64,000 nt of DNA from Gammaproteobacteria bacterium (GCA_965203475.1 OZ241890.1:1513423-1577422); one strand, 5' to 3'. Shown: positions 3,961 to 48,143, counted from the stretch's first letter. Notes: generated by a model from the sequence alone, not told the origin. Program-made: numbers and translations.

Positions 3961-3964
3961 GCCG

Positions 3965-26598: not shown

Positions 26599-26767
26599 AA
26601 GTCCGCTTACGTGCTTGAGCCTAGGGACAATGTGCATGGATACACAAGTGTCGCGGGAGACAGGAAGTCGGGAGCAACCGTGCGAATAAGAGCTACAACA
26701 GGGATGTTGTATCAGATTAAAATCAGTAATTCTTAAAACGTCCACTTACGGCCAATAGCGGACATTA
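26599..26767 (+). repeat. MITE-like element copy A (~169 bp, terminal inverted repeats GTCCGCTTACG ... CGGCCAATAGCGGACATT)
   Basis: The core gtgcatggatacacaagtgtcgcgggagacaggaagtcgggagcaaccgtgcgaataagag is shared with copies at 46.3, 47.2, 48.0 and 27.2 kb. The terminal inverted repeats (TIRs) are palindromic. Confidence 0.75.
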
Positions 26768-26776
26768 TTATTAATA

Positions 26777-27100
26777 CTAAGTACCTGACCATACTCCCCA
26801 TGTTTCACAAATTCCACCATACGGAGCAGCAATTTTAGATGCTTCATTTTGTATTTTGATTACTAATTCATATGTAATTAAATCGTTTATTTGAAATTGT
26901 ATATAACCATCAAACTCTTTATCAGGTTCTATTACTTTGATTTCTTTGTACCTAGCAGTAAGTTTATTTAGTAACTCTGGATTGGGCGGCCAATGATTCA
27001 GATCAATATTAAAATCGATAATATGTTTGATATTAAAGTCCATTCCTCCTGCTTCTATTCGTCTTAACGCATCGCCAACTGCATCATTTGGGAATTGCAT
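26777..27100 (-). CDS. Orphan hypothetical protein (107 aa) bracketed by inverted MITE copies
   Basis: ORF; no recognisable domain. Confidence 0.45.
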   Translation of the reverse strand: MQFPNDAVGDALRRIEAGGMDFNIKHIIDFNIDLNHWPPNPELLNKLTARYKEIKVIEPDKEFDGYIQFQINDLITYELVIKIQNEASKIAAPYGGICETWGVWSGT

Positions 27101-27142
27101 AAAGTTCCAACATATTTTTAATTGATTACGTGTCGTATATTA

Positions 27143-27262
27143 ATGTCCGATTTGGGTCGTAATCTGCACTTCCTACTTCCGTGTAGGTCGTCCATGATGG
27201 AAATCTTATTCGCGCGGCGCTGCCGACATCCTGTCTTTCGCGACACTTGTGTGTTCTACACA
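27143..27262 (-). repeat. MITE-like element copy B (inverted relative to A)
   Basis: Its reverse complement aligns with copy A (..cacaagtgtcgcgaaagacaggatgtcggcagcgccgcgcgaataagatttccatcatgg..). It begins with aatgtccga and ends overlapping the last codons of the GTPase gene. Confidence 0.7.
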
Positions 27263-28713
27263 TCGCCCTTATGTTGGCCAGACGGATTGGTATATTCATC
27301 ATTTAGTTTTTGGATAAAAACATTTGCACGATTTTTTATATCTAATAATTTTTCTCGTGCTGACCTGTTCCAACCGACGATAAATGGACGTGCTAATGAT
27401 CGCCACCATCGAGTGTTGTGTAAAAACCCAGAACGTACATATTGATCCGTAATTCCTTCTTCTAACGTTGATGCCATCCATCTTGCAATAAATTTTCGCA
27501 CAAAAAAGTGAATAGCAATTAACAAAATAGCCAAAAGCACAAATAGAAAAAGTAACCCATATTGATCACCGGCATTGTATTCCCCTGCAGTTCCATAGTG
27601 CTTCAGTAGATACACTACAAAAGCAATAAAAATTGGAATAAAAATTACCGCATCAACGACTAACACTCGCTTGGCCCAAATTCGCACAGCTTTTTGAATT
27701 TTAGGCACAAATGATTTTTCGATTTGATTCGCCGTATGCTCTAAAGAACCAACAATGCGATAAATTCGCTCTACACTCACTTCAGAAATACGTTGATAGA
27801 TTTCTTGCAAATCTACATCTCGTTTGCGCTGATATCGTTCACGCAATGATGCATCTTCAATGGGAACCGCAGCATTTTCATTGTAAATTGAATAAAAACG
27901 CCCGCTGACAAGTCCTGCTTGTGCAATCGCACGCTGCCAGGCAGCCACCACGTCCTCTGCATTATCTTCCGATGCCGTTGTGTCTATTTGATTAAGAATA
28001 AACAACACTTTATTCGAATCATTGCGTCGCACTGTCCCCGCAACCAAATGATCTAATGTATCTCGCATTGCTCCAGGTTCTGGGTGTCTTGCATCAAATA
28101 TCACTAACACCAAATCTGATAAATTTATAATGTGATCGGTAATACGTAAGATAGAGGTCCGTTGCGCATCGGCATCAAAACCTGGCGAATCGATAAAAAT
28201 TTTGCCTTTAATTAAATCGGTGGGGCAGGTTTTTAATTGCAAGTAGGTGTCAATTCTTGAACCTTCCCCTTGGGCAACTTTTTCAATTTCTTGACTAATC
28301 TTATAAAAAGGAAATCGAGGATCTGCATCAAGCGCTAAACCAGGCAACACGCGCACTTTTTCATCACTGCTGAAACATATTACGGTAAATTTATCGTCAA
28401 CCGCTTGATTGCCAGTTTTTTGCAAATCGGTTTGTACATAATGATTAATAAAAGTAGATTTGCCTGCCGAAAACGTACCCAACACTGAAATTAATGGCCA
28501 CCAGGAAATGTCAGTAGTAAAGGATTGCTTATTAGACAAAATACCTAATTTGTAGGCAATTTTATCCAGTTCACAAAAGTGATCGACCACAGAGACAAGC
28601 AAGGGATTTTCGCTTGAAAGATGATCACGAAGACTTTTTATTCTAGTTTTTAAATTAGCATCAGGTCCAGCCAGCATTTTAAACCCACAAACTATATGAA
28701 CTAAATGATACAA
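27256..28713 (-). CDS. Dynamin-family (BDLP/mitofusin-like) GTPase with C-terminal transmembrane hairpin
   Basis: G1 GTFSAGKST, G3 DSPG, G4 NQID. Two hydrophobic helices lie at ~aa 355-405. Confidence 0.65.
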   Translation of the reverse strand: MYHLVHIVCGFKMLAGPDANLKTRIKSLRDHLSSENPLLVSVVDHFCELDKIAYKLGILSNKQSFTTDISWWPLISVLGTFSAGKSTFINHYVQTDLQKTGNQAVDDKFTVICFSSDEKVRVLPGLALDADPRFPFYKISQEIEKVAQGEGSRIDTYLQLKTCPTDLIKGKIFIDSPGFDADAQRTSILRITDHIINLSDLVLVIFDARHPEPGAMRDTLDHLVAGTVRRNDSNKVLFILNQIDTTASEDNAEDVVAAWQRAIAQAGLVSGRFYSIYNENAAVPIEDASLRERYQRKRDVDLQEIYQRISEVSVERIYRIVGSLEHTANQIEKSFVPKIQKAVRIWAKRVLVVDAVIFIPIFIAFVVYLLKHYGTAGEYNAGDQYGLLFLFVLLAILLIAIHFFVRKFIARWMASTLEEGITDQYVRSGFLHNTRWWRSLARPFIVGWNRSAREKLLDIKNRANVFIQKLNDEYTNPSGQHKGDV

Positions 28714-28777
28714 GCATCATTATAGACGTCTGACAGATAAATTCTGCAAACATTGTAATTTATTTAATAGACGTTGA

Positions 28778-29746
28778 TTATTTTTGACGCATTTTTTGTA
28801 ATTGCTTACTAAATTGCACACAGGGGTCTTGATTAGTATGACTAGGTGTAAAATATAAAACATCAAATGTGCTGCCTGATTCATCCATATAGTCTTGCGG
28901 CTCATTCAAATCGGGTTGCACCGAAATAAATGCAATCGATATATATGAATATTGCTTAAACTTATTCACTAACTGCATGGGAATTGCATAATCATTTCGT
29001 ACATGGCCGCTTCCAGCAATTAACACCACAGGTTTCTTGTTCTCAACTAATGTTGAAGTTATTACAAAATCACGTTGTAACTGCGCGCGCGCCATAAATT
29101 GAACAAAATTCTTATTCGCATAGCCACAGTGCGAATCGACGATATTGGATTTTAATTTTGCAAAGTTAATTTTACTGATCCAATAATTTGTAAGCACTTC
29201 TTCTGGATTAAGTGGCCCTATTTTATTAGACCACTCATGCAGTGCTTTACTATCAATATTTCCAGCCATTAACTCTAAATTATGCTCTACAATTACTTCC
29301 AAAATTGGTGCATACAAATCCCAGGGCCAACGCTCATTTATCGCACTCGATTGCTGTTTTAATTTATCCACATCATTCCATGTTTGTGGCTGTCCTTCCC
29401 ACGTCTGCTTCTCCAACATTTCCATTACCACTACAGGCTGCTTTTTGGATTGTGCAATCGTTTTTAATAAATTAGCTTGTAGTTGATGATGATCAGCATT
29501 GTTATGCACTTCACCTAATAAAATGTAGTCATATTGAATGATTTCTTTTTTTAATCTTTCAACTGATAACCACTGGTTTTTTCCTGTATCCCAAATTTTG
29601 CCGACTAAAGGATGATCTATATAGTAAGGAGACTTCCAATCTTGCGCCCAACCAGCACCGGGTATAAAAAAAATTACAATAAATAAAAATCGTATATGTT
29701 TACACATGCAAGAAAGCCTTAGAATAGAAGTATGGAATACATACAA
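28778..29746 (-). CDS. ChaN/Tiki-superfamily (TraB/GumN-like) lipoprotein
   Basis: Signal peptide; the GEVHNNADHH...E motif region resembles ChaN haem-binding/Tiki proteins. Confidence 0.5.
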   Translation of the reverse strand: MYVFHTSILRLSCMCKHIRFLFIVIFFIPGAGWAQDWKSPYYIDHPLVGKIWDTGKNQWLSVERLKKEIIQYDYILLGEVHNNADHHQLQANLLKTIAQSKKQPVVVMEMLEKQTWEGQPQTWNDVDKLKQQSSAINERWPWDLYAPILEVIVEHNLELMAGNIDSKALHEWSNKIGPLNPEEVLTNYWISKINFAKLKSNIVDSHCGYANKNFVQFMARAQLQRDFVITSTLVENKKPVVLIAGSGHVRNDYAIPMQLVNKFKQYSYISIAFISVQPDLNEPQDYMDESGSTFDVLYFTPSHTNQDPCVQFSKQLQKMRQK

Positions 29747-30832
29747 TCACAGGAAAATTTCGATTCATTTTGTAAAGATATCAGCAATTACACATGGTTG
29801 ACGATTGATACCGAATTTATTCGCGAACGAACTTATTACCCCAAACTCTGTTTAATTCAAATAGCGACAGTAGACCATATTGCATGCATAGACCCTTTCT
29901 CAATAGAAAATTTAGAAGCATTAAAATTAATTCTATATTCATCCAACGTCACTAAAGTATTTCATGCCGCAAGCCAAGATTTAGAAGTATTTTATAATTT
30001 GTATGGCCAAGTTCCCGCACCCATATTTGATACTCAGATAGCAGCCAGTGCACTTGGGTATGGAGATCAAATCAGTTATGCGCAAGCCGTAAAAGAAATT
30101 TGTGATGTTACGCTAGATAAATCCTTATCTCGCACCAATTGGGATCGAAGACCTTTAAGCAGCGATGAAATTCATTATGCATTAGATGATGTGAAATACC
30201 TTGTCGAGGTATATCAGCAATTGAATACTCATTTGGATCAAATGAACCGTAGCTCCTGGGTACACGAAGAATCTATGAGAATCTGTTCTCATAAGCGCTA
30301 CGAGATCATGCCTGACCAACAATGGAAAATTGTCAAAGGCGTTGGAAAATTAAACGCTCAACAACTAAATTTTCTAAGAGAGCTTGCAAAATGGCGCGAA
30401 GAGTACGCCATGCGTGAAAACAAACCCAGACGCTGGATTGTGCGGGATAAAGATTTATATTTGCTAGCGGTTGAACAACCTTCCACAATGGGGGAACTCA
30501 CAAGTATCGAAGGACTAACTGAAGAGTCTTTTACCCATGCAAATCACTTACTCGAGAGCATTGAAAACGCTAATGCGATGCCAGAAGCACACTGGCCAAA
30601 TGAAAATATAACGCAAGCCTTAACTCGTGATCAGCGAAAATTGTTGAAACTTGCTCAAGCAATTGTCCGTGAGCATGCAGAAAATTTAAATATATCTGCA
30701 AGTTTATTAGCTACACGAAGTTCGCTGGAAAAATTAGTGCGCGGGAATCGTAAATTAAATTTTTTACATGATTGGAGAAAAGAGATTATTGGAAATGACT
30801 TACTCAAATTAGTTGATACAGATTTACTTTAG
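29732..30832 (+). CDS. rnd: Ribonuclease D
   Basis: DEDDy 3'-5' exonuclease motifs (LTIDTEF, YALDDV) and a C-terminal HRDC domain. Confidence 0.85.
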   Translation: MEYIQSQENFDSFCKDISNYTWLTIDTEFIRERTYYPKLCLIQIATVDHIACIDPFSIENLEALKLILYSSNVTKVFHAASQDLEVFYNLYGQVPAPIFDTQIAASALGYGDQISYAQAVKEICDVTLDKSLSRTNWDRRPLSSDEIHYALDDVKYLVEVYQQLNTHLDQMNRSSWVHEESMRICSHKRYEIMPDQQWKIVKGVGKLNAQQLNFLRELAKWREEYAMRENKPRRWIVRDKDLYLLAVEQPSTMGELTSIEGLTEESFTHANHLLESIENANAMPEAHWPNENITQALTRDQRKLLKLAQAIVREHAENLNISASLLATRSSLEKLVRGNRKLNFLHDWRKEIIGNDLLKLVDTDLL

Positions 30833-30882
30833 CACCTTTGGATTATATTTTTATTCCGCTTTTCGATACTATTAGATTCATT

Positions 30883-31134
30883 ATGACAACAGACGATATT
30901 CAAAAACTTATTGAAGCCGGCATTCCGGGGTCACAAGCGATGGTGACAGGCGCTGAAGGAAAATATGAAGCGACCGTGATTAGTGATGCATTTGATGGCC
31001 TAACCATGGTTAAAGAACACCAGTTAGTCTATGCCACGATTAAAGATCAAATTGCCAGTGGTGAATTGCATGCACTTAGTATCAAGGCGTTCACTGTTGA
31101 GGAATGGGAAGAAAAGCAAAATTCCTCAAACTAA
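30883..31134 (+). CDS. ibaG: BolA-family protein (IbaG/YrbA-like)
   Basis: MTTDDIQKLIEAG...FDGLTMVKEHQLVYA...HALSIKAFT is similar to E. coli IbaG. The ATG at 30883 is preferred. Confidence 0.65.
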   Translation: MTTDDIQKLIEAGIPGSQAMVTGAEGKYEATVISDAFDGLTMVKEHQLVYATIKDQIASGELHALSIKAFTVEEWEEKQNSSN

Positions 31135-31617
31135 ATGCAATATTTAGAACCACTCTTAAAAACATCCGTTCAAAACATTCTTAGCCATTACGGCCTCAGC
31201 TTACAGCTTGTTAATATAGAGAACGAAATTCCGTATAGTTATTGGGGCACACCAGAGGCCGGACGCAAACAAAACACATTGTTTGCTCAAACAAAAACTC
31301 CTCTTCATTCCGTGCTACATGAGGCCTGTCACTATGTGTGTATGCCTGCACATCATCGAACTTGTAAAGCGATTGATGCAGCAGGTGGAGTAGAAGAAGA
31401 AAACGCTACTTGCTATTTGCAAGTGTTACTCGCCGAACATATCGATGGCTATTCGAGCCAACTAATCATGCAAGATATGGATCGCTGGGGATATAGCTTT
31501 AGACTTGGTAGCTGTAGCGCATGGTTTGACAAAGATGCTGAAGATGTACAAGCATGGCTGATGCAGCATAAAATTATTAATCACAACAACCAAATTACCT
31601 GGAACCTTAGAAATTAA
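31135..31617 (+). CDS. Hypothetical protein (160 aa) with an HExxH-like HEACH motif
   Basis: ORF only. Confidence 0.4.
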   Translation: MQYLEPLLKTSVQNILSHYGLSLQLVNIENEIPYSYWGTPEAGRKQNTLFAQTKTPLHSVLHEACHYVCMPAHHRTCKAIDAAGGVEEENATCYLQVLLAEHIDGYSSQLIMQDMDRWGYSFRLGSCSAWFDKDAEDVQAWLMQHKIINHNNQITWNLRN

Positions 31618-31933
31618 CCAAACATCTCATTTTTGTGCAGTTGTATATTGACATCCTGAACAATTCTTCTTAGCATTTATAGTGCTCATTGTCGCTGATT
31701 TAATTCAACAACTTGCAGAGCGACTCAGAAATACTGCTAAAGCGATGACCGTCCTAATGCTTCAGGGTCGTGTCAGCGTAAATTTAACATGAAGCTGGAG
31801 ACGGTGTGATGATCTATAAATCTGATTTGCAGTTTTCTCTGCTAACCAATCAACAAATTTATTTCTGTGCTAAGCCAATAGTATCAGCTGCCATGGTACA
31901 ACATTGCTCCAACGCAAACAGGGGGTACACATT

Positions 31934-33211
31934 ATGAAAATAGAAACACTTGCCATACACAGTGGATATGAACCTGATCCAACCACAAAAGCGGTAGCCG
32001 TTCCTATATATCAAACAACTTCATACGCCTTTGATGACACTCAACACGGTGCCGATTTATTTGACTTAAAAGTTGAAGGTAATATTTACACGCGCATCAT
32101 GAACCCAACAACGGCTGTTCTAGAACAACGTATTGCAGCTATGGAAGGTGGTGTAGGGTCACTGGCACTGTCTTCGGGTATGGCCGCAATTTCATATGCC
32201 ATTTTTGCCATTGCAGAGCAAGGCGACAACATTGTTTCGGTCGCTACACTTTATGGTGGAACGTATAATTTATTTGCACACACACTACCGAAACTTGGTA
32301 TCGAAGTTCGTTTTATAGATTACCGTGACATGGATGCCATGGCGGCTGCAATAGACGATAAAACAAAGGCAATAGTTTGTGAATCTTTAGGAAACCCCGC
32401 AGGTAATGTGATTGACCTTGAAAAAACAGTAGACGTTGCACACGCAAAAGGGGTTCCTGTAATTGTTGATAACACAGTACCTACCCCCTATTTATGCCGT
32501 CCATTTGAACATGGCGCAGATATTGTTGTGCATTCATTAACAAAGTACATGGGTGGACATGGAACCACTATTGGTGGGGTTGTGGTTGATTCGGGAAAAT
32601 TCCCATGGGAAAAACACAAAAAACGTTTTCCGATGCTAAATGAACCAGATCCATCCTATCATGGTGTGGTTTATACCGAAGCGTTGGGAGCAGCGGCTTA
32701 CATAGGCCGAGTACGAGTAGTACCACTACGCAATATGGGCTCGGCAATATCTCCATTCAATAGCTTTCTTGTATTACAAGGGATCGAGAGTTTACCGGTA
32801 CGTATGGATCGTCATTGTGAAAATACTTTAGCTGTCGCTCAATACTTAGAAAAACATAAAAATATAACTTGGGTAAATTACGCAGGTTTGCCTACACATG
32901 AAGACCATGCCTTGGTACAAAAATATTTTAATGGCAAAGCTTCTGGAATTTTAAGTTTTGGAATAAAAGGCGGCATTGAGGCGGGGACTAAATTTATTGA
33001 CGCACTACAACTTATAGTGAGACTGGTGAATATTGGTGATGCAAAATCGTTAGCATGCCATCCAGCTACCACTACACATCGACAGTTATCAAAAGAAGAG
33101 CAAGCTACAGCAGGTGTGAGTGAAGATTTAGTGCGACTATCCATCGGCATAGAACATATTGATGATATTTTAGAGGACATCGAACAAGCACTTGAAAAGT
33201 CTGCGGCTTAA
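31934..33211 (+). CDS. metY: O-acetylhomoserine sulfhydrylase (PLP-dependent, Cys/Met metabolism family)
   Basis: MKIETLAIHSG...; the PLP lysine region SLTKYMGGHG; a Shine-Dalgarno sequence (SD) AGGGGG precedes the ATG at 31934. Confidence 0.88.
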   Translation: MKIETLAIHSGYEPDPTTKAVAVPIYQTTSYAFDDTQHGADLFDLKVEGNIYTRIMNPTTAVLEQRIAAMEGGVGSLALSSGMAAISYAIFAIAEQGDNIVSVATLYGGTYNLFAHTLPKLGIEVRFIDYRDMDAMAAAIDDKTKAIVCESLGNPAGNVIDLEKTVDVAHAKGVPVIVDNTVPTPYLCRPFEHGADIVVHSLTKYMGGHGTTIGGVVVDSGKFPWEKHKKRFPMLNEPDPSYHGVVYTEALGAAAYIGRVRVVPLRNMGSAISPFNSFLVLQGIESLPVRMDRHCENTLAVAQYLEKHKNITWVNYAGLPTHEDHALVQKYFNGKASGILSFGIKGGIEAGTKFIDALQLIVRLVNIGDAKSLACHPATTTHRQLSKEEQATAGVSEDLVRLSIGIEHIDDILEDIEQALEKSAA

Positions 33212-33231
33212 ACTCTTAAATTCAATTTAGT

Positions 33232-34206
33232 TTGTCGAGCTACCATCCTAGCTGGCCATTGAATAATGGTCATATAAATACCATTGCGGCTGCATCTTAC
33301 GTTCGCAAACGATATGCACTAAGCGTAAGTAAAAACTTACACAGCAACAGTGAATCCATAATTTTAGAGCTTAGCGATAATGTACGCTTGCAAGGATTCC
33401 TATCGACAGGGCAAACTGACGAAAAACCTTTAGTTTTCTTGCTGCATGGTTGGTTGGGTTGCGCAGATTCTCTTTATCTCTTACCTTTAGCATCACTGCT
33501 GTACGCACAGAGCTTTACTGTTTTTCGATTAAATTTTCGGGATCACGGAAACACACAACATTTAAATAAAGAGCTGTTTCATTCTTGCAGACTTAAGGAG
33601 GTCTGCGAAGCTGTGCAATACATTCAGCAAGTCGTAAAGCATTCAGCATTGTATTTAATTGGCTTTTCTTTAGGAGGTAATTTTGCGCTACGAATTGGAG
33701 CAGATGCGGATGATTTTGGATTAAAGATCAAGAAAATTTATTCCATTAGTCCAGTCATGGATCCTGAACAAGCATTAAATGAAACCGAATCCATGCATAA
33801 GATTTATACCCGCTATTATTTACAACGTTGGAAGCAAATGCTCTACAAAAAGCATACACATTTCCCTGGAGCGTTAGATTTAAATAAAATAAATCATCAA
33901 ACCTCACTAACAGGAATGACTGAACATTTACTGCTTCAATATACAGAATTTAATTGTCTAAAAGATTATTTACACGGGTATTCGATCATTGGGGATCGAT
34001 TATCGAGTTTAAAAGTCCAGAGTGATGTTTATATAGCAAAAGATGACCCGGTCATTCCTTACCAAGACTACAAAAAGTTACATGCATCCAAACAGCTAGA
34101 TATTCACATTAATGAAAACGGCGGACACTGCGGATTTTTGAATAGTCTATTCAATATAAATTGGGTTGATGAAAATATCATCCATTCGTTAAATCAATAC
34201 ACTTGA
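33232..34206 (+). CDS. YheT-type alpha/beta hydrolase
   Basis: NGH.NT...R N-terminal pattern and the GFSLGGN nucleophile elbow; TTG start. Confidence 0.65.
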   Translation: MSSYHPSWPLNNGHINTIAAASYVRKRYALSVSKNLHSNSESIILELSDNVRLQGFLSTGQTDEKPLVFLLHGWLGCADSLYLLPLASLLYAQSFTVFRLNFRDHGNTQHLNKELFHSCRLKEVCEAVQYIQQVVKHSALYLIGFSLGGNFALRIGADADDFGLKIKKIYSISPVMDPEQALNETESMHKIYTRYYLQRWKQMLYKKHTHFPGALDLNKINHQTSLTGMTEHLLLQYTEFNCLKDYLHGYSIIGDRLSSLKVQSDVYIAKDDPVIPYQDYKKLHASKQLDIHINENGGHCGFLNSLFNINWVDENIIHSLNQYT

Positions 34207-34359: not shown

Positions 34360-36579
34360 TTAATCCGTTAAAAAGTTATTCAATATATATTTCGCAACTT
34401 GTCGAGCACAATCTCCTTCACAGGTAGATGCTACTGGAGTAGGCATATAAAGTGTCAAATAATTTTCCAAAGTTGCTTGATCGCCGCATACTTCTTGATT
34501 TGGTGGCACTGGTACTGTGTTATTCGTACACATGTTCGGCCCTATTGGGAAGGCATAAATCAATGAGCCTTCACCTGCCGCACCATGACAGAATGCGCAT
34601 TGCAAATCATATTCAGTTTTACCTAAGGCAAGTTCTGGGTCAGGATTTGCAGTAACCGTTACAGACTGCACCAGATTTGATCCCTCTATACCAATACAAC
34701 TTAGAGTAAAGGTTGTACTTGCCTGAATATTAGCAATAACCTCACTATAACTTGCTTGTGCTACATCTTTCGCACCGGTCCATGCCGCATTAGCGGGCAC
34801 CGAAGATGCTGTACAAGAAGCAAGATCCGTTGGGTTCCATGCCAAGGTAACCGAATCACCTTTAATAATAGTTGCATTTGCTGCATTGTTAACTGTAAAG
34901 GTTAATGATGGATTAGGAACAACTACCGTAACATTTACGCTAACATTTGTTGCTAAATTAATAGAGTTTACACAACTTAAGTTAAAGGTTGTATCGGCCA
35001 ATAAATTATTAATAGTTTCCATACCAGATAATGCTTTCGCACCGGTCCAGCCACCTGAAGCAGTACAAGTTCCTACCGCGCCAGTTGAACTCCAAGTTAA
35101 AACTGTAGAATCGTTATACGGAACATTCATAACTGGATTAGCACTTAAATTTACAACAGGCGCACCTGGCGCTGCATCTACAGTCACATCAACTGAGGCG
35201 ACTTCAGAATTAATACCGCCCTTAGTACATACTAAGCTGAAGGTATTCACACCTGACTGAGTTAAGTTATTTAATGCCATGTTACCTGTAGCCAATCTTT
35301 CCCCACTCCACTGACCATTAGCATTTGCACCACCTGCAGTACAGGTGTCACCATCCGAAGCCCAGGTTAAAGTAACCGTACCATCATAAGCAATTGGGTT
35401 AGCTGCATTGGATGCCGGTGCTGCCGTAAAAGTGGCTATAACAGGTTGAACATCATTGTCATTATTGGTGACTGAAACATCAGATGGATTTACACCACCA
35501 TAGGTTCGATCTGTACTTACTGCAGCTGCTGTTACGATTGAATAAGCTACTGGCCCATCAACCATTGGAGCTGCTGCATCATCCACACCAGTAACCGTTA
35601 CGGTTTGTGCATTCATGAAATTGTTTTGATCAATAACAATTGATGCAGGATTTACTATGCCCTCTGCAGTGTTATTACTGGACAGACCAATGGTAACTGG
35701 CGCAGTAGGTGCAGTTGCAATAGAAATATCAAATGTAGCAGTGTCGCCATCCTCACTGGTAACCAATCCAACAGTTGGATTCACAGTAATCGTTCCTTGA
35801 CCCGCGACCTCATCATCTGTGTTCACCAATGAAACATCAGCTGGATCAATGGCTGCGTAATTTGGATCAGCACTTACTGCAGTTACAACTACATTATATG
35901 GAGTATCTAGTAAGGCATCTACGACAACATCATTTACTCCGGCAACCATAACAGTATAGGCCTGCGTCCAGTTACCTGCATTAAATGTATGTGAATCTGC
36001 TCCAACAATAGTTCCTTCGTTAACGTTATCACTCATTACGTTAATCGTTACATCATCGGTTGGGACAGAATTTAATCCTACAGTAAAGGTTGCCATTGCA
36101 CCTGCTTCTGTGGTTTGCAGCCCTGAAGTCGGGTTAACGATAATGCCAGGAGCATTGTTAGCACCAGGTTTCACCTTACCTTGAACAAATCCTTCAATAA
36201 TATATTGCGATACATCACTAGCACATTGACCAATACAAGTTGTAGGATCGTAGCCACCACCAGCAGATGGCATTAACAACTCGTTGTAATTGGTGAGTTG
36301 TGTATGGTCTACACAACTTAGGCAATCATTGGTGTTATCGACTGGCCCACCTGCGGATGTACCTTCACCAAATCTGCCGTGACAACTATCACAAGCATAT
36401 ACAGGATCAATATAGATTGAGCAACCAGCTGCAGCTTGCGCGGAAAGATTTGTAAAATTTGCGCAACTAAACGCATCGGTCATCTCCCCTGTACTTTCGC
36501 CGGAAGATTCACCGCCACAAGCGCTTAAACCAAATAAGATAACTGCCAATACGACAGCACATTGCAGAATGCCTTTCAT
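34360..36579 (-). CDS. Large surface lipoprotein: N- and C-terminal c-type-cytochrome-like modules (CxxCH) flanking Calx-beta/cadherin-like repeats
   Basis: Lipobox LSAC; CDSCHGRFGEG near the N-terminus and CAFCHGAAGEG near the C-terminus; repeated TVTVTGVDD...VTNNDND modules. Confidence 0.7.
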   Translation of the reverse strand: MKGILQCAVVLAVILFGLSACGGESSGESTGEMTDAFSCANFTNLSAQAAAGCSIYIDPVYACDSCHGRFGEGTSAGGPVDNTNDCLSCVDHTQLTNYNELLMPSAGGGYDPTTCIGQCASDVSQYIIEGFVQGKVKPGANNAPGIIVNPTSGLQTTEAGAMATFTVGLNSVPTDDVTINVMSDNVNEGTIVGADSHTFNAGNWTQAYTVMVAGVNDVVVDALLDTPYNVVVTAVSADPNYAAIDPADVSLVNTDDEVAGQGTITVNPTVGLVTSEDGDTATFDISIATAPTAPVTIGLSSNNTAEGIVNPASIVIDQNNFMNAQTVTVTGVDDAAAPMVDGPVAYSIVTAAAVSTDRTYGGVNPSDVSVTNNDNDVQPVIATFTAAPASNAANPIAYDGTVTLTWASDGDTCTAGGANANGQWSGERLATGNMALNNLTQSGVNTFSLVCTKGGINSEVASVDVTVDAAPGAPVVNLSANPVMNVPYNDSTVLTWSSTGAVGTCTASGGWTGAKALSGMETINNLLADTTFNLSCVNSINLATNVSVNVTVVVPNPSLTFTVNNAANATIIKGDSVTLAWNPTDLASCTASSVPANAAWTGAKDVAQASYSEVIANIQASTTFTLSCIGIEGSNLVQSVTVTANPDPELALGKTEYDLQCAFCHGAAGEGSLIYAFPIGPNMCTNNTVPVPPNQEVCGDQATLENYLTLYMPTPVASTCEGDCARQVAKYILNNFLTD

Positions 36580-39698: not shown

Positions 39699-39700
39699 AT

Positions 39701-40909: not shown

Positions 40910-41023
40910 ATATTATTTATATGAATTATTAAGGGGTGCGATTTTGCTTAAAGCAAAGTAGAGTTTCAAGCAGAAGAACTCTTCTACAATTGTATTAAAT
41001 GTATTTAATTTTTTGCCTATAAA

Positions 41024-41488: not shown

Positions 41489-41522
41489 TATATAATTAGA
41501 AATCGACTAATAAATATAGTCT

Positions 41523-41801
41523 TCAATCTTCGCATTGCCAACCACTTAAATCAGAAGGTGCGTCATGTGTCTCTAATTCGTCCCACACGATATACCCTGT
41601 ATTTTGGTCATGTACGGCTTGTGCCGCCTCCTCGGCAGTAGGAAAAGTGAGTGTTGGCATACCATCCACCCATAGATCCCACATTCCTAGTGGTTCTTTT
41701 AGAATTTCAAATGTAGAAACATCCGTTTGTAACTTATACTTCATAGGTAAAGTATAACGTATTGATTTATTCCTGTGAGCACAGCGAACTTCTTTTTCCA
41801 T
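41523..41801 (-). CDS. Hypothetical protein (92 aa)
   Basis: ORF only. Confidence 0.3.
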   Translation of the reverse strand: MEKEVRCAHRNKSIRYTLPMKYKLQTDVSTFEILKEPLGMWDLWVDGMPTLTFPTAEEAAQAVHDQNTGYIVWDELETHDAPSDLSGWQCED

Positions 41802-42143
41802 GGATTATTTCCGGATTATATTGAAACAAAACAGGATCAATCGCGACAAATCTGCAAAGTGTTATTTGATGTTGATGTAGATGGTAAGTTTTATTCACAT
41901 TTAATTGCCAACATTTGGCAAGTTGATGAAGTAGATGGTGTGCCTACATTTGAAGTTGAATTTGACATTCCATTTGAATGTGATGAATTTCCAAGAGCCG
42001 TTGTAAAGTATTATCAGCAAGTCATAGGCCCACAATCTAAAACTATCAGTCAAAGCGGTCCTAAAGGACCCATCCCCAATAAAAATGTTTACCGTGTGCA
42101 ATGGCAAATCAGTTTACCCGCTATCAAAAAGCGCACAAATTAA
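41775..42143 (+). CDS. Hypothetical protein (122 aa)
   Basis: ORF only. Confidence 0.3.
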   Translation: MSTANFFFHGLFPDYIETKQDQSRQICKVLFDVDVDGKFYSHLIANIWQVDEVDGVPTFEVEFDIPFECDEFPRAVVKYYQQVIGPQSKTISQSGPKGPIPNKNVYRVQWQISLPAIKKRTN

Positions 42144-42176
42144 TTTTTACAATACATTATAGAAAACGCAGCTTTC

Positions 42177-44264
42177 ATGAAAGCGCCGCATGCAAAAAAG
42201 CAACCTAAAAAAATTATCATGCATGAGCATGAACGAATTGACGATTATGCATGGCTAAAAGATGAGAATTGGCAAAATGTAATTAAAGATCCATCTCTAC
42301 TTTCCGCAGATATTAGAGAATACTTGGAGCTGGAAAATAAGTATTTGGAAAATTCACTCCAAGATACAGAACAATTGCAAAAAGAATTATTCAATGAGCT
42401 ACGCGCAAGAATAAAAGAAGATGATAGTACCGTACCTGAAAAAGATAATGAGTATTTTTATTACGTGCGTTATGAACAAGACCAGCAATATCCAATTTTT
42501 TGCCGATATCACAAAGATACACCCAAGCAGGAAAAAATTTTATTAGATGCCAATACAGTTGCAAAAGATTATGCATACTTTGATATTGGCGATACAGGCC
42601 ACAGCCCTAATCACCGCTACTTTGCTTATAGCGCAGACACTAAAGGTTCGGAATTTTACACACTTTATATATTGGACCTAGCTAACAATGAACTGCTCGA
42701 GGATCAAATTCCGAATATACAAAGTGATTTTGTCTGGGCCCAGGATAATGAAACGATTTTTTACACCATGCTGGATAACAATCACCGCCCTGACCGTGTG
42801 TTGCGACACCGATTACACCAAAACATAAACCAAGATGATCAAGTATACAAAGAACTTGATCCAGGATTTTTTGTTGGACTCGATGTTACAGAATCGAACA
42901 ACTACATATTAATTTCTGCACATGATCACGTGACTTCTGAAATTTATTTTGTAGACGCGCACCAGCCAGACATGCCACCAACTTTATTCTCTAAGCGAGA
43001 AGCCAATCTTGAATATGAAATTACGGATCATGGCGATTATTTTTATATCGTCACGAACAAAGATGGCGTAGAAGACTATAAACTAATGCGAACATCTTTA
43101 CGTAAAACGGATCAGTCAAATTGGAATGATTTTTATGTACCCGAAGAAGGAACTTTATTAAGAGACACCCTCCTTTTTAAACATTTTCTAATTCGTTTCG
43201 AACACACAAATGGCTTACCAAGAATAAATGTCTCTAACTTATATGAACAAGCACTGGGGGACACGCATGCCATTGAATTTGATGAAGAAGCCTATGAATT
43301 ACATGTAATGCCTGGTTATGAGTTTGATACGGAAATTTTACGTTTTTCATACACTTCAATGACTACACCAACACAAATTTTTGACTACAACATGTCGGGG
43401 CGAACTCGTGAACTTAAAAAGCAGCAACTAATACCTAGTGGGCATGATGTTCATCAATATGTAACACGAAGATTATTTGCAACCACAAAAGATAAACAAC
43501 AAATTCCCATCTCTTTACTCTACAAAAAAACAACTGTACTGAATGGAAAAGCACCATTATTACTGTACGCCTATGGTGCATATGGAAACTCTATGCCTGC
43601 CAGCTTTTCAAGCAATCGGTTTTCATTAGTAAATCGAGGGTTTGTGTATGCTATTGCACATGTGCGCGGTGGTATGGAAAAAGGCTACAGCTGGTATCGA
43701 GACGGCAAGCTTCAACACAAAAAAAATACGTTTGAAGATTACATCGCATGTGCAGAACACTTAATTGAGCAAAACTATACTAACGCGGGCAAAATTACAG
43801 TTCATGGCGGTTCCGCTGGAGGTATGCTAGTGGGCGCAGTATTGAATATGAAACCTGAATTATTTCATGCTGCAATCGCAGATGTGCCATTTGTGGATGT
43901 GTTAAACACCATGAGTGATGACACCTTGCCATTAACACCCCCAGAATGGCCTGAATGGGGAAACCCCATTCAAAATAAACAGGATTATGAAAATATTCTT
44001 GGATACTCTCCTTACGAAAATGTACACGCACAAAATTACCCTCATCTGTTGGTTACTGCCGGCCTAACAGACCCACGTGTAACCTACTGGGAACCTGCTA
44101 AATGGGTAGCGAAGCTTCGAAATTTAAAAACAGATCAGAACATTTTACTGTTAAAAATGAATATGAAGGCTGGGCATGCTGGTGCATCAGGTCGATTTGA
44201 TTATCTTAAAGAAATCGCTTTAATGTACGCATTTATAGTTAAAGCATTCAATAGTTATAAGTAA
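42177..44264 (+). CDS. ptrB: Oligopeptidase B (S9A prolyl oligopeptidase family)
   Basis: Beta-propeller N-domain, catalytic GGSAGGMLVG and C-terminal Asp/His; the start may be the internal Met (MHEHERIDDYAWL). Confidence 0.88.
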   Translation: MKAPHAKKQPKKIIMHEHERIDDYAWLKDENWQNVIKDPSLLSADIREYLELENKYLENSLQDTEQLQKELFNELRARIKEDDSTVPEKDNEYFYYVRYEQDQQYPIFCRYHKDTPKQEKILLDANTVAKDYAYFDIGDTGHSPNHRYFAYSADTKGSEFYTLYILDLANNELLEDQIPNIQSDFVWAQDNETIFYTMLDNNHRPDRVLRHRLHQNINQDDQVYKELDPGFFVGLDVTESNNYILISAHDHVTSEIYFVDAHQPDMPPTLFSKREANLEYEITDHGDYFYIVTNKDGVEDYKLMRTSLRKTDQSNWNDFYVPEEGTLLRDTLLFKHFLIRFEHTNGLPRINVSNLYEQALGDTHAIEFDEEAYELHVMPGYEFDTEILRFSYTSMTTPTQIFDYNMSGRTRELKKQQLIPSGHDVHQYVTRRLFATTKDKQQIPISLLYKKTTVLNGKAPLLLYAYGAYGNSMPASFSSNRFSLVNRGFVYAIAHVRGGMEKGYSWYRDGKLQHKKNTFEDYIACAEHLIEQNYTNAGKITVHGGSAGGMLVGAVLNMKPELFHAAIADVPFVDVLNTMSDDTLPLTPPEWPEWGNPIQNKQDYENILGYSPYENVHAQNYPHLLVTAGLTDPRVTYWEPAKWVAKLRNLKTDQNILLLKMNMKAGHAGASGRFDYLKEIALMYAFIVKAFNSYK

Positions 44265-44347
44265 ACCTGTATTGCAAACACATATGGATTTACACCATAA
44301 TTCACACCTCAAATTTTTAGAACTATAAAATTCCCAGGACTGAGAGA

Positions 44348-44566
44348 ATGGTAGAAGAAAATCTTATTCGCCGAGATTCTGATGAAGGCTACATTATTGC
44401 TTGGAAATTAAAATATGATTTTGAAACAGGCAAACTCAAAGATGACGCCATGACATATGGCGAAGCACGAAAAAAATGTGAAGAATTAAACGAACAAGAA
44501 CCTGATAAAACGTATTGGCCCGAAAAAGTTAAATCAGGGCCAGAATGGCATTTGGTTTACGAGTAA
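44348..44566 (+). CDS. Hypothetical protein (72 aa)
   Basis: ORF only. Confidence 0.3.
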   Translation: MVEENLIRRDSDEGYIIAWKLKYDFETGKLKDDAMTYGEARKKCEELNEQEPDKTYWPEKVKSGPEWHLVYE

Positions 44567-44573
44567 ATTTTTC

Positions 44574-45218
44574 TTACGGTGAAACTCTTTCTATTCTCCA
44601 TTTATTAGAATTTGTTGTTACATAGCGCAATCGGTCATGTAGTCGATTGGGTCTTCCTTGCCAAAATTCTATAAGATTTGGAATAACACGATATCCACCC
44701 CAGTGTTTTGGGTAAGGAATTTCTTTTCCCTCATATTTTTGTTCTAAACGGTTGTACTCATTTTCTAATACTTGGTAGTTGTCAATTACAGAACTTTGCT
44801 GTGAAGCAATCGCACCTAACTGACTGCCACGTGGTCGCGTATGAAAATATTCTTCGGATTCTTTAGTCGATATTTTTTCTACCGTGCCTTGAATGCGTAC
44901 CTGTCGATACAATTTGTCCCACCATATATTCAATGCAGCCGTTTTAGTTGCGTCTAAATCTTTAGCTTTATTGCTATGGTAATTAGTAAAAAAAACAAAT
45001 CCGTTTTTATTAAATGCTTTTAGTAACACCATACGTGATGTAATTACGCCATCTTTATTATTAGTAGCAATACTCATAGCATTTGGCTCAATAAATTCAG
45101 CTTCACAAGCTTCATTGAACCAAAGTTCAAACTGCTCAAATGGATTATCTTTCACTTTACTTTTTTCTAACATCGTGGTTTGGTAATTTTTGCGAAGCTT
45201 CGATATATCATCAGACAT
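44574..45218 (-). CDS. pdxH: Pyridoxamine 5'-phosphate oxidase
   Basis: FMN-binding PNPOx sequence (...RMVLLK..FVFFTNY.S.K...). Confidence 0.88.
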   Translation of the reverse strand: MSDDISKLRKNYQTTMLEKSKVKDNPFEQFELWFNEACEAEFIEPNAMSIATNNKDGVITSRMVLLKAFNKNGFVFFTNYHSNKAKDLDATKTAALNIWWDKLYRQVRIQGTVEKISTKESEEYFHTRPRGSQLGAIASQQSSVIDNYQVLENEYNRLEQKYEGKEIPYPKHWGGYRVIPNLIEFWQGRPNRLHDRLRYVTTNSNKWRIERVSP

Positions 45219-45238
45219 GATGAGTACTATTGTAGTGG

Positions 45239-45871
45239 TTATTTATAGCAAATACCGGTTCCGCCTAGACCACAATAACCACTAGGATTTTTTGCTAAAT
45301 ATTGTTGGTGATAATCTTCAGCGTAATAAAATTCAGGCGCATCTAAAATTTCGGTAGTGATTGACCCTACTCCTTTTGCAGTCAATTTAGTTTGATATTG
45401 TTGTTTACTTTGAATGGCTTTGGCTTTTTGTTCTTCATCATATACATAAATTCCTGAACGATATTGCGTGCCCACATCATTCCCTTGCTGCATGCCTTGA
45501 GTCGGATTATGCGACTCCCAAAATTGTATTAATAATTCTTCATATTGAATGACAGCAGAATCAAACACCACACGCACCACCTCGTTATGCCCCGTGAGAC
45601 CAGTACACACCTCTTCATAGGTGGGATTAGGAGTAAAACCCCCTGCATACCCAACAGCCGTGGAATAAACCTCTTTCATTTCCCAAAACTTTCGTTCTGC
45701 CCCCCAAAAACAACCCAAACCAAACATGGCAAAGCTATGGCCATCGGGGAAAGGCGGCACCAAAGAATTTTTGTTCACATAGTGCACTTTTGCCGTAGAA
45801 ATTGGCGTATCACGACCCGGAAGCGCTTGCTCTGGTGTAGGCATCAGTGTTTTTTTAGTCGACAAAAACAT
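45239..45871 (-). CDS. msrA: Peptide methionine sulfoxide reductase MsrA
   Basis: GCFWG active-site motif. Confidence 0.92.
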
Positions 45872-46017
45872 TACATTTACAAGTGGTTCAAATTTTAGTT
45901 TATATTTTCAATAATCTGAAAGTACAGGAAATAAATTGGAATAATAGTTGTATGATTACGCTTTAGGGAATTTAACTAAGTTATTAGGTGTCTATATTAT
46001 AAATCAATTATCCTAAT

Positions 46018-46275
46018 ATGGAGCTCGTTATGAAAATTAGAATATTCCTGATTGTAATGCTTTCGATTCTTCCAATCACCTATGTGGTGGCATTTACTGG
46101 TCCACCCAGTATTTATTACAGCCAATATTTCAATCGTGGCGATCAATTAAAAAAATCATACAAAGATGTGCATGGTGAAAGCTACGAAAACTACAGCAAA
46201 CGCATCCGCGAAGAAGTTGAAAGAAAATCTATTCAAGAATCGGATAAAAAAATCAATATACAAGAAGACAACTAA
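46018..46275 (+). CDS. Small secreted hypothetical protein (85 aa)
   Basis: Signal peptide; ORF only. Confidence 0.3.
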   Translation: MELVMKIRIFLIVMLSILPITYVVAFTGPPSIYYSQYFNRGDQLKKSYKDVHGESYENYSKRIREEVERKSIQESDKKINIQEDN

Positions 46276-46297
46276 ATTCAAAATTTGTGAATACAAG

Positions 46298-46430
46298 GAT
46301 AGTGAGCATAGAGACGATGTGCATGGATGCACAAGTGTCGTGGTAGACAGGAAGTCGGGAGCGACCATGCGAATATGAGTTCCATCAGGGATGATGCAAC
46401 CGAATAAGAATATTAACTGGTTGCATCATC
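46298..46430 (+). repeat. MITE-like element copy C (partial, lacks clear TIRs; internal 12-bp hairpin gatgatgcaacc/ggttgcatcatc)
   Basis: About 80% identity to the copy A core over ~100 bp. Confidence 0.7.
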
Positions 46431-47155
46431 TAACTATTATTTTTAATGTGCATTGTTAGACTTTTGTTTTCTACAACGAATGACTGGCCGTGCCAACCAA
46501 ATTGTAAGAATGAGGAAAATTCCCATTCATTATTATTAGAAAATAACTCAAGCATAGCCATTCTTTCACCAGAAATTTGTGTTGCTGACCAACAAAAGTA
46601 ATCATCAAAGGCAATAATCATTCCATGTTTTAAACGCGGCAAAAGAAACTGAAGCACTTCTTTTGCACTCGAATAAAGATCGCAATCGATGTATGCAAGT
46701 GCAATATTTTTTGGCGCATCTTCATCCGTCAAATTTTGCAAGGTTTCTTCATAAAATCCTGGTATCACTTTATAGGCATCTCTTGGTATGCCTTGCGCAG
46801 CACAAAGTCTATGAAACGTTTCTAGGGGCGTAGATAATTTTTTCTCGACCCATTTTGGGTGTGAATCTTTTGACTCTGCAGGTGCCGGAAGTCCTTCAAA
46901 TGAATCAAATGCCCATAATTTGGCAATGTGCTTATGCCGAGTGGCCTCACGGTAAGCCAGAGAAAATGTTTTTGCGCCATGACAACCAAACTCAGCATAA
47001 TCTCCATCTATCCCATTAAACGAAAGCGCCCTAAAAGCATTGTAAAAAAATTCTTTTCGACCTTCTCGTTCTTTTACATGAATAAGAGGATCACGCCTGC
47101 TAGAATTTTTTAAAATACTTGACTCAATTCTTTTCAATAAATATTTAAGATTCAT
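46430..47155 (-). CDS. Class I SAM-dependent methyltransferase, TylF/MycF (macrocin O-methyltransferase) family
   Basis: AFDSFEGLP and YIDCDLY motifs. Confidence 0.7.
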   Translation of the reverse strand: MNLKYLLKRIESSILKNSSRRDPLIHVKEREGRKEFFYNAFRALSFNGIDGDYAEFGCHGAKTFSLAYREATRHKHIAKLWAFDSFEGLPAPAESKDSHPKWVEKKLSTPLETFHRLCAAQGIPRDAYKVIPGFYEETLQNLTDEDAPKNIALAYIDCDLYSSAKEVLQFLLPRLKHGMIIAFDDYFCWSATQISGERMAMLELFSNNNEWEFSSFLQFGWHGQSFVVENKSLTMHIKNNS

Positions 47156-47196
47156 CCTGTATCAATTTGCTACGTTTTGTATTTATTAAGTATACA

Positions 47197-47300
47197 GTTA
47201 GTGAGCACAGGGATGTGCGAATATGAGTCGAATCATGGAGGATTCGAACCGGTTAAAGTTTTAATTTCCAATGTCCGCTATCGGCCAATAGCGGACATTT
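47197..47300 (+). repeat. MITE-like element copy D (internally deleted; ends in perfect hairpin AATGTCCGCTATCGGCCAATAGCGGACATT)
   Basis: Shares the agtgagcacagggatgtgcgaatatgag core and the terminal palindrome. Confidence 0.7.
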
Positions 47301-47393
47301 GTTAGATCCAAAGTAGCATAAATCTATGTATCAGCATTTAAGCCTGAAGTTGTCATCAATATAAAAAAAACAGTTCACATTGGCCTATACGCA

Positions 47394-47963
47394 TCATGTT
47401 GACTCATTCAATTTCAATGTTATTTTACCTGGCCATTCTTGCTCTAAGCGTTTTATTAGTTCAGGCATGAACTGCTCGTATGAATGCTTCGTGTGAAAAA
47501 CAATACCTGCTTTAGGTCTGTAGTAATTATTGGTTGCTTTTAATGACATCGATCTAAAAAATAATGACCGCCAATGATACCAGTCCATAAATATCATGGG
47601 ACTATCATCAATCAATTCCTGAGTTTCTTTAAAACTCTCATATTGTGCTTCTAGCGAGTCATGTTCGTAGGGATACCGTACGACATCATTTTTAAAAGTC
47701 TCGAACGAGATAGGTGCTTTCAATTTGCGACGCAGTTTCGTATGCCTATCAGAAGAGTCTCTTAATTGAAAATTCGTATCAGACGTAAATTCAGTCATAA
47801 CTTGACGCAGTTGTTTGAATTGATCTGGTTCTATATCAATCCCTAACACACCATATTGCTGATAACTGAGTATATAGGCAAGATTGATGATAAATATCAA
47901 TCCAACTATCGCGATTGGAGTTACTACTATATACCCTACCAGTTTACGTAATTTTTTTCTCAT
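47394..47963 (-). CDS. Hypothetical protein with N-terminal TM anchor (189 aa)
   Basis: ORF with one N-terminal hydrophobic helix. Confidence 0.4.
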   Translation of the reverse strand: MRKKLRKLVGYIVVTPIAIVGLIFIINLAYILSYQQYGVLGIDIEPDQFKQLRQVMTEFTSDTNFQLRDSSDRHTKLRRKLKAPISFETFKNDVVRYPYEHDSLEAQYESFKETQELIDDSPMIFMDWYHWRSLFFRSMSLKATNNYYRPKAGIVFHTKHSYEQFMPELIKRLEQEWPGKITLKLNEST

Positions 47964-47976
47964 ATCATGATGTGTT

Positions 47977-48143
47977 AAATGTCCACTTTAGGTCGTAAGC
48001 AGACATTCAGTAGAAAAAATTATTCTGTTCACATCATCCATGATGGAAATCTTATTCGCACGATCGATCCTGACTTCCTGTCTACCGCGACACTTGTGCA
48101 TCCATGCACATCGTCCTTTTGCTCAGAATCAATATCGGACATT
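47977..48143 (-). repeat. MITE-like element copy E (full length, inverted; TIRs AAATGTCCAC ... ATCGGACATTT)
   Basis: Its reverse complement aligns with copy A across the core (gtgcatggatgcacaagtgtcgcggtagacaggaagtc...cgtgcgaataagatttccatcatgg). Confidence 0.75.

Follow-up and report, generated by a model that had tools for sequence, protein, structure and literature searches.

What are the short repeats that recur five times within 22 kb of a gammaproteobacterial genome, and how did they come to lie there? The question arises in a 64,000-nt stretch of DNA (GCA_965203475.1 OZ241890.1:1513423-1577422; hereafter the window), in which the initial annotation described a family of ~160-bp repeats resembling MITEs (miniature transposable elements with inverted repeats), bounded by terminal inverted repeats (TIRs) and mobilized in trans. 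Our analysis shows a different architecture: a nested composite of three layers, consisting of a 30-nt palindrome similar to repetitive extragenic palindromic (REP) sequences, a ~70-nt host unit that we call H, and a 50/51-nt module, X. Judged from sequence, the repeats are overall best read as a family of non-autonomous modules that insert into loops, nest in one another, would serve mostly as elements of 3′ untranslated regions (3′ UTRs), and would present decoy hairpins of the CsrA type; we give this explanation as a whole a probability of roughly 55%. Best supported within it is the view of X as a present or recent mobile insertion, tiny, non-autonomous, and precise in its entry, usually in or beside a hairpin loop, and of the complete units (H, X, and palindrome) as long-lived structured elements found mostly in the 3′ UTR position.

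By direct reading and alignment, we found the reported set of at least five copies in 22 kb (c1 to c5) at about the positions first given. The core pattern CACAAGTGTCGNGNNAGACAGGANGTC has four matches in the window against 0.00 expected from 100 shuffles, and a covariance model of the core, run with the filters off, returned four X copies only (80.1, 74.1, 73.7, and 61.3 bits), the rest of the window scoring at most 12 bits; the fifth copy, c4, is without X. The copies are small and have no coding capacity. Identity among them is 82 to 87%, no higher than to copies in other genomes, and the sequences thus give no sign of a recent burst. Their parts are as follows:

26598..26611, plus strand: 5′ half of a resident palindrome (AAAGTCCGCTTACG) after the mreD stop codon; unit c1 begins in the palindrome loop
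26612..26736, plus strand: c1, unit H with X, made up of the H 5′ segment (26612-26627), X (26628-26678, 74.1 bits), GCGAATAAGAG, hairpin 4, and a spacer
26693-26712, plus strand: hairpin 4 of c1, ACAACA-GGGA-TGTTGT
26737..26766, no strand assigned: terminal 30-nt palindrome (AACGTCCACTTACGGCCAATAGCGGACATT) closing c1
27142..27171, minus strand: degenerate palindrome of c2 (AATGTCCGATTTGGGTCGTAATCTGCACTT)
27172..27278, minus strand: c2, unit H with X (27216-27265, 61.3 bits)
46302..46400, plus strand: c3, unit H with X (46315-46365, 80.1 bits) and hairpin 4, CCATCA-GGGA-TGATG
46389..46440, plus strand: the 3′ hairpin of c3 itself (GATGATGCAACC...GGTTGCATCATC; 12-bp stem) with a T-rich tail, in place of the palindrome
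47201..47269, plus strand: c4, X-free host unit, made up of the first hairpin (P0) GCACA-GGGA-TGTGC, GAATATGAG, hairpin 4 TCGAATC-ATGGAG-GATTCGA, and a spacer; fold z = -2.91
47270..47299, no strand assigned: perfect 12-bp palindrome of c4 (AATGTCCGCTATCGGCCAATAGCGGACATT)
47978..48007, no strand assigned: palindrome of c5 (AATGTCCACTTTAGGTCGTAAGCAGACATT), 15 nt upstream of the start codon of the open reading frame (ORF) 47394-47963
48008..48129, minus strand: c5, unit H with X (48063-48113, 73.7 bits) and hairpin 4, CATCA-TGGA-TGATG
48130..48143, minus strand: 5′ half-palindrome of c5 (AATGTCCGATATTG), directly past the stop codon of ORF 48145-48639, at an offset of -29 from X, as in c1

The module X reads CGATGTGCA(N)GGATGCAC AAGT GTCGC GNGA GAC AGGAN GTC GNGA GCGAC (in short form, CGATGTGCA(N)GGATGCACAAGTGTCGCGNGAGACAGGANGTCGNGAGCGAC). 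Its predicted fold consists of two hairpins, with an energy of -17.2 kcal/mol (z = -3.3; none of 200 shuffles folds as well), of which P1 starts 3 to 4 nt from the 5′ end and P2 closes the 3′ end. Translated by hand, X has no stop codon in any of the six frames and can therefore survive in frame inside essential genes.

Such cases were found among the matches of the core in other genomes (loci denoted by L numbers). In the valS genes of four Cellvibrionaceae, in obg, whose GTPase domain it interrupts just ahead of the NKxD motif, and in a gene for a PlsC-type acyltransferase, X lies in one common frame and adds a 17-codon insert, DVQG(S/R/C)TSVAGDR(M/K/T)S(G/R)AT, to host domains that are otherwise intact. 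It also lies in tRNA D-loops, with the same boundaries and no duplication: in a 5′ copy of the gene directly upstream of the real tRNA-Arg (TTGGA^X^TAGAG vs. intact TTGGATAGAG) and in 5′ copies of tRNA-Leu (GGTAGA^X^CGCAAGG). Head-to-tail arrays of X stand between tRNA-Cys and tRNA-Leu in Gilvimarinus, an Arenicellales metagenome-assembled genome (MAG), and an unclassified gammaproteobacterial MAG, and a Porticoccaceae locus has X copies directly upstream of tRNA-Leu. The tandem or repeated copies (L017 342-495, L020 7094-7289, L013 6075-6180, and L010 88-278) belong to genomes of different families and orders; those of L013, L017, and L020 lie between tRNA-Cys(GCA) and tRNA-Leu(TAA), the L010 locus includes tRNA-Leu only, and in L020 and L010 a 5′ tRNA-Leu fragment precedes each X copy. 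In L012, from an Acidiferrobacterales MAG, and in the metagenome contig L042, X occupies the loops of further intergenic hairpins. X is sense-oriented in all eight transcribed contexts outside H (3/3 protein genes and 5/5 tRNA operons), and GGA stands immediately 5′ of it in ~7 of 11 independent contexts. As a separate observation, tblastn found csrA only in L002 (935-1108, 1.4 kb from the valS X; Cellvibrionaceae) and L004 (416-583, 5 kb from the tRNA-Arg X); this proximity is probably a coincidence and may belong to a csrA-tRNA-Ser-tRNA-Arg neighborhood.

The valS gene also provides an empty site. A search of valyl-tRNA synthetase fragments, mostly short, returned a Cellvibrio-like allele without the 17-residue insert (P0001), and comparison of L046 valS, ...GGGCAGGA^TGGATCAAGT..., with L002, ...GGGCAAGA[51 nt X]CGGCGCGACT..., revealed an exact presence/absence difference with no target duplication, the empty junction being GGGCAGGA^TGGATC. 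Across 300 flanking columns, the X-free L046 groups with the X-bearing L002 as its sister, and the outgroup, L025, bears X. An X-free allele nested within an X-bearing clade requires precise loss, allelic replacement, or repeated site-specific gain.

Within the window, X sits in the loop of the first of the two hairpins of H, each of which has a GGA loop. The consensus of H is GTGAGCACA-(N)GGA-TGTGC GAATAWGAG, followed by hairpin 4 and a spacer. The initial annotation took c4 for an internally deleted copy; as the X-free form recurs with an identical junction at six loci elsewhere (L001 twice, L014/L041, L016, L023), c4 is not a deletion product but H without X. In X-free units, the loop of P0 reads ACA(R)GGA(U)GU, and its stems, read by eye, vary in a compensatory manner (GCACA/TGTGC, GTACA/TGTAC, ACAC/GTGT). 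The stem is not maintained around X, with no covariation of P0 in X-bearing units; the insertion of X evidently disrupts P0. Hairpin 4 covaries strongly across 21 units (0.419 vs. 0.172 ± 0.031), with 24 doubly changed cells against 8.6 expected; none of 500 shuffles reached either value, and slid controls were far lower. The loop C-A-N-G-G-A-N-G is kept while the stem varies, and the hairpin 4 stems of the orthologous loci L015 and L045 differ by compensatory changes.

X and H are not alone in this behavior. Further ~50-nt two-hairpin modules with GGA loops, among them M3 (CGACTGCATGGATGCAGGAGGTAGAGTAAAGCAGGAGCAGTTACCGAG) and M4 (CGACCGTCATGGATGACGGAAGTGCTAGAAACGCAGGACGCAGTTTCTAGTG), which start with CGAY, were seen in other genomes, M3 and M4 sitting in the first loop of X or in hairpin 4. 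Nested modules lie at L019 ~6770-6820 and L024 1-48, downstream of X in L028, L022, and L038, in hairpin 4 of L008 and L023, and upstream of X in L003 and L037; in some genomes they form deeply nested arrays.

The third layer, the palindrome, is 30 nt long (AATGTCCGCT-loop-AGCGGACATT) and has three full copies and one degenerate copy in the window. In nearly every unit it is found at a fixed distance, 54 to 59 nt 3′ of the core, and solo palindromes, with the loop in either orientation, are numerous in L008, L009, L011, L015, and L019. The extra 5′ half is present in c1 and c5 only, at equal offset, and in none of c2, c3, and c4; nearly all units of other genomes lack this arm, and several H units there begin within a truncated palindrome. 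What had been described as palindromic termini or TIRs are thus arms of a separate palindrome, the 5′ half occurring in two of the five copies. No GTAG was seen beside it. A further "TIR-only hairpin" reported at 4738-4778 consists of arms of no more than 6 bp (ATGTCC/GGACAT) separated by 28 nt and is not a convincing member of the family; beyond this weak hairpin (region 4738-4810) comes a distinct, perfect palindrome, TTTTCGAATATAATAATTCGAAAA, probably a terminator, and both lie downstream of a FixJ-like response-regulator gene (3869-4591).

A strain 97% identical to the window, L027, has an intact palindrome (AAAGTCCGCTTACGGTCAAAAGCGGACATT) after mreD and no c1 unit. Synteny with L027 (5540 onward) breaks at window position 26611, exactly in the palindrome loop; to the right of the breakpoint, L027 carries an RNase_T-like gene and other small genes, and the window has c1, an RraB-like ORF, and c2. 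The gap between mreD and the GTPase gene is a strain-variable spot. The imperfect 14- to 19-nt direct repeat around c1 consists of the left arm of the palindrome, which borders this larger variable segment. As everything right of the breakpoint also differs between the strains, the absence of c1 is a matter of segment replacement, the palindrome loop holding the breakpoint, and not of clean transposition. A search for target-site duplications (TSDs), as the initial annotation proposed, found none at X, either in the valS empty site or in the tRNA D-loops, and the evidence sides only in part with a classical MITE, because the repeats have no TIRs of their own and no TSD.

What the modules share is their loops. 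The hairpin loops of X, H, M3, and M4 are all of the form C-A(N)GGA(U/A/C)-G, and the predicted folds place the GGA motifs in loops. Over the five window units (492 nt), GGA occurs 20 times against 5 expected and the complementary TCC four times, and CA(N)GGANG occurs 12 times against 0.15 expected; the copies counted are mutually related, each unit holding two to three separate instances. The repeat of CsrB, CAGGA(U/A/C)G, and the SELEX-derived consensus for CsrA, RUACARGGAUGU, are typically located in short hairpin loops (PMC7652899), and the motif of our units equals them. X carries two putative CsrA sites ~24 nt apart. Such a spacing suits a CsrA dimer.

X is also strongly constrained. Pairwise identity among the four valS genes is 58% at the third-codon positions of the flanks and 100% at codon positions 1 and 3 of X. 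Outside the search pattern, one of the 24 outer columns of X varies against 30.6% in the flanks (P = 0.0018), and none of the eight third-codon positions varies against 67% in the flanks (P = 1.4e-4). The pattern would imply either nucleotide-level selection within a coding gene or renewal of X by homing or gene conversion.

The core is widespread. We found it in 26 stretches in a scan of 185,579 species genomes and in 18 further stretches in a metagenome scan; a scan of viral contigs gave 0 matches. The similarity is therefore no local segmental duplication, one of the outcomes by which the initial annotation could have failed, but spans several gammaproteobacterial orders: X occurs in Thiotrichales-like, Cellvibrionales, Arenicellales, and Acidiferrobacterales genomes, and complete units of H, X, and palindrome occur in an uncultured "Thiotrichales" MAG (8 contigs), two more gammaproteobacterial MAGs, and a 2.65-Mb metagenome contig. 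The Thiotrichales-like MAGs carry several copies per genome. Bins labeled Pirellulaceae and Mycobacterium with units of identical type are probably mis-binned. The scanned collections do not include the window's own genome; the nearest sequences in them are L027 (97% over 5.5 kb) and the syntenic L005 (~70 to 75%). The other such outcome, derivation from a known structured RNA, did not materialize either: no Rfam family matched at its gathering score in the window's repeats and 38 loci, nor at E ≤ 10 in the repeat regions, beyond noise to RsmY, the best Csr/Rsm match (13 bits against a gathering score of 57, E = 3.2, on the correct strand of c5). A full-text literature search with the core sequence gave chance primer matches only, a protein search with the concatenated X-encoded peptide gave none at E ≤ 10, and a look-up of the exact proteins flanking c3 to c5 found no record.

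The copies keep close company with genes. Four of them (c1, c2, c3, and c5) point the same way as the gene just upstream, c4 being the exception: c1 follows mreD, c2 a dynamin-like GTPase ORF (27256-28713, minus strand), c3 ORF 46018-46275, starting 27 nt past its stop codon, and c5 a WLM-like ORF. Most H units at other loci likewise lie ~0 to 50 nt past a same-strand ORF. The earlier description of the copies as intergenic and set against gene ends holds in that they are non-coding structured repeats at gene ends; it fails for c2, in which the TAG stop of the GTPase ORF (27256-27258) lies inside X. The 3′ hairpin and T-run of c3 look like a terminator by their predicted structure (46302-46440, z = -4.63). 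The accessory-looking ORFs between the copies (RraB-like, TylF-type methyltransferase, an unknown ORF, and WLM-like) are each bracketed by palindromes or hairpins, and the window copies occur in both orientations within one replichore, as judged by the monotonic cumulative GC skew. By synteny, c2 is orthologous to a single unit in L005 and L032, and units therefore persist over long evolutionary times.

How could such a family arise? In the mechanism we propose, X enters DNA precisely, without target duplication and often right after GGA in a hairpin loop. We infer that it would be moved in trans by an enzyme acting on single-stranded hairpins, of the HUH/Y1 type known from IS200/IS605 and REP elements, because of the precise insertion without duplication, the hairpins at both ends, and the preference for loops. 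Sense transcription of the units would come mostly from the upstream gene, whose 3′ end they would form, and the palindrome would close the transcript as a terminator or stabilizer. The resulting RNA would display three to five C-A(N)GGA(N)-G loops and might bind and titrate CsrA/RsmA in the manner of CsrB and RsmZ. A role as CsrA/RsmA decoy fits, at the level of sequence, the loop motif, the strand asymmetry, the covarying stems, the terminal hairpins, and the arrays in tRNA operons; the strict sense orientation leaves room for an RNA-mediated route, that is, retro-insertion. A bolder and distinctly tentative extension, which we think unlikely as it stands, is that X, M3, and M4 form an undescribed class of ~50-nt mobile modules that invade hairpin loops, among them those in tRNA D-loops, other repeats, and coding sequences. 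Each would bear a pair of high-affinity CsrA-type hairpins, so that the modules would carry CsrA decoy or regulatory sites from genome to genome and, inserting into one another, assemble RNAs similar to Csr sponges.

Several observations weigh against our reading. The helices of X are 95% paired but barely variable, and the near absence of covariation makes the alignment uninformative about them; there is moreover an ascertainment bias, since the search pattern itself dictated the central 27 nt of X. GGA does not precede every insertion point (obg has CAG, L012 has CCG, and AAA and GTA also occur), and M3 lies 5′ of GGA. Allelic recombination could also yield the presence/absence difference in valS, and the missing c1 in L027 is, as described, no clean transposition. 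A tblastn search of the window and the ~350 kb of loci, with IS200/IS608 TnpA queries, found no transposase, Y1, or RAYT gene, in line with the reported lack of a transposase in the window. Simple scans for promoters, GacA boxes, and terminators around the copies gave nothing above shuffles, and the response regulator at 3869-4591, considered as a GacA candidate, was ruled out as FixJ-like. Sequence conservation between orders is not normal for CsrA sponges, and a CsrA-type site inside valS has no obvious regulatory logic.

Of the rival explanations, the one that survives best regards the units as non-mobile RNA genes or 3′ UTR elements of the Csr/Rsm type that multiplied by ordinary duplication and selection, the inserts in valS, obg, and the tRNA genes being ancient and retained for CsrA binding. 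The ~80-fold enrichment of CsrA-consensus loops, the covariation of hairpin 4, and the nucleotide-level constraint on X in valS suit it as well, and the same holds for the tRNA-Cys/tRNA-Leu arrays in several families, the noise-level RsmY match, and the persistence of units at orthologous loci of ~70% identical relatives (c2/L005, and L015/L045 with their compensatory stem changes). Ordinary duplication, however, cannot place a scarless identical 51-nt block in unrelated genes, D-loops, and hairpin loops of different orders, and the explanation has to accommodate the nesting of the X-free valS allele within an X-bearing clade, the lack of any Rfam Csr/Rsm match at threshold, and the lack of a GacA-type promoter signal. 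We regard it as an improbable, minority explanation.

Somewhat less probable, and in our view doubtful, is an explanation confined to DNA: selfish elements similar to REP sequences or palindrome-associated transposable elements (PATEs), in which the GGA-loop hairpins are sites of a single-stranded DNA transposase, the likeness to CsrA sites is coincidental, and the RNA has no function. Insertion without TSD at a precise empty site, hairpins at or near both ends of X, nested insertion into loops bearing the same motif, and the six open frames of X all speak for it, and the sense orientation in highly expressed genes could mirror a replication-strand bias. Yet the copies of a single replichore occur in both orientations and follow the direction of the upstream gene; c3 has swapped the palindrome for a different terminator-like hairpin; the compensatory changes in the hairpin 4 stems of L015/L045, with the loop motif kept, are unexpected for dead copies; and no Y1 gene was found in the window and loci.

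A classical MITE of ~160 bp, with AATGTCCG...CGGACATT as TIRs recognized in trans by the transposase of an insertion sequence (IS) that leaves TSDs, is very improbable: AATGTCCG-type sequences do stand at both ends of c1 and c5, and c1 is flanked by an imperfect direct repeat and is itself missing from the 97% identical strain, but the supposed 3′ TIR is a complete palindrome in itself with many solo occurrences, c2, c3, c4, and nearly all units elsewhere have no 5′ arm, the "duplication" at c1 is the palindrome's left arm next to a segment that differs throughout, X moves without TIRs or TSD, and the proposed search for an IS with matching ends (AATGTCCGC) found none in the window and the ~350 kb of loci. 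Integron attC sites, Xer/dif-type sites, TnpB/IscB guide-RNA scaffolds, ribozymes, and type III antitoxin repeats were also considered and dropped for want of defining motifs or an Rfam match.

If the reading of a nested family of loop-inserting modules is correct, X would rank among the smallest bacterial mobile units, residing under constraint within essential genes (valS, obg) and tRNA operons across orders. Binding sites of the CsrA type would then be modular and mobile, which would open a route to Csr sponge RNAs and 3′ UTR decoys. For annotation, it would account for short conserved "extra" peptides in housekeeping proteins and for 5′ tRNA-like fragments beside tRNA genes, and it would mean that the palindrome, H, and X are three separable families that should not be merged as one "MITE."

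Elsewhere in the window, we noted a 123-nt direct repeat, 99% identical, at 7005-7127 and 9020-9142, consisting of the 3′ ~39 nt of a tRNA-Met gene (9104-9180, minus strand) and its downstream flank. The repeat brackets a single ORF of 583 amino acids (7225-8976), whose product has ClpS, ClpX zinc-finger, and AAA ATPase domains and weakly matches the anti-phage protein IteA, and the region 7005-9142 looks like a ~2-kb insertion at tRNA-Met without an integrase. A thiamine pyrophosphate (TPP) riboswitch lies at 52439-52551 on the minus strand (64.1 bits, the gathering score being 54.3). A direct repeat of 43 nt, with 72% identity between copies 276 nt apart (34696-34738 and 34972-35014), falls within the long ORF 34360-36579 (minus strand) and is possibly an internal protein repeat.

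How do the modules compare with known systems? By the tests available, no sequence relative was found among REP/REPIN sequences and PATEs, small dispersed repeats (SDRs), and CsrB/RsmZ; the likenesses to these, and to the Rickettsia palindromic elements (RPEs), are of behavior. Bacterial MITEs such as Correia, ERIC, and QMITE are also small, non-autonomous, structured, and placed at gene ends, where they may supply stop codons or terminators, and some MITEs give rise to small RNAs (PMC10969869). They differ in being defined by TIRs and flanking direct repeats, neither of which is found in X or H. RPEs share with X that they are small structured non-coding repeats found in frame in unrelated housekeeping genes, where they add a peptide and the gene is kept (PMC10969869). 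RPEs, however, measure ~150 bp and are confined to Rickettsia, whereas X, at 50/51 nt, occurs in free-living gammaproteobacteria of several orders, as well as in tRNA D-loops and other repeats, and with CsrA-type loops.

PATEs are mobilized by Y1 HUH transposases or RAYTs. The REP/REPIN sequences and IS200/IS605 PATEs are likewise palindromes at gene ends with hairpin ends, no TIRs, and no target duplication (for REPINs, see PMC3116915), show precise presence/absence, and are acted on as single-stranded hairpins, which for X we infer. Our 30-nt sequence has the REP-type traits of a short imperfect palindrome that is extragenic and highly repeated, and X has the PATE-type traits of no TIR, hairpins at or near both ends, no TSD, and an exact empty site. 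The modules here differ in having no GTAG-type 5′ tetranucleotide, no RAYT/TnpA in the sequences searched, and no strictly constant insertion site, and in nesting in each other's loops and occurring in frame in genes.

CsrB, CsrC, and RsmX, RsmY, and RsmZ resemble the units in their several CAGGA(U/A/C)G-type motifs in short hairpin loops, their repeated units, and their terminal hairpin (PMC7652899). The units differ from these RNAs in having no Rfam match at threshold and no visible GacA/UvrY-type promoter, and in being multicopy, mostly in 3′ UTRs, preserved in primary sequence across orders, and insertional in their core. The cyanobacterial SDRs, among them the Nostoc repeats SDR4-6 reportedly described by Elhai et al. 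in 2008, are shorter than 100 nt, form hairpins, are inserted in conserved RNA and protein genes, nest in one another, and have no known transposase; they belong to another phylum, measure 21 to 27 nt, and have another sequence and no GGA-loop theme. Each behavior of X, H, and the palindrome is thus of a known kind, and it is their combination that is unusual among small bacterial repeats.

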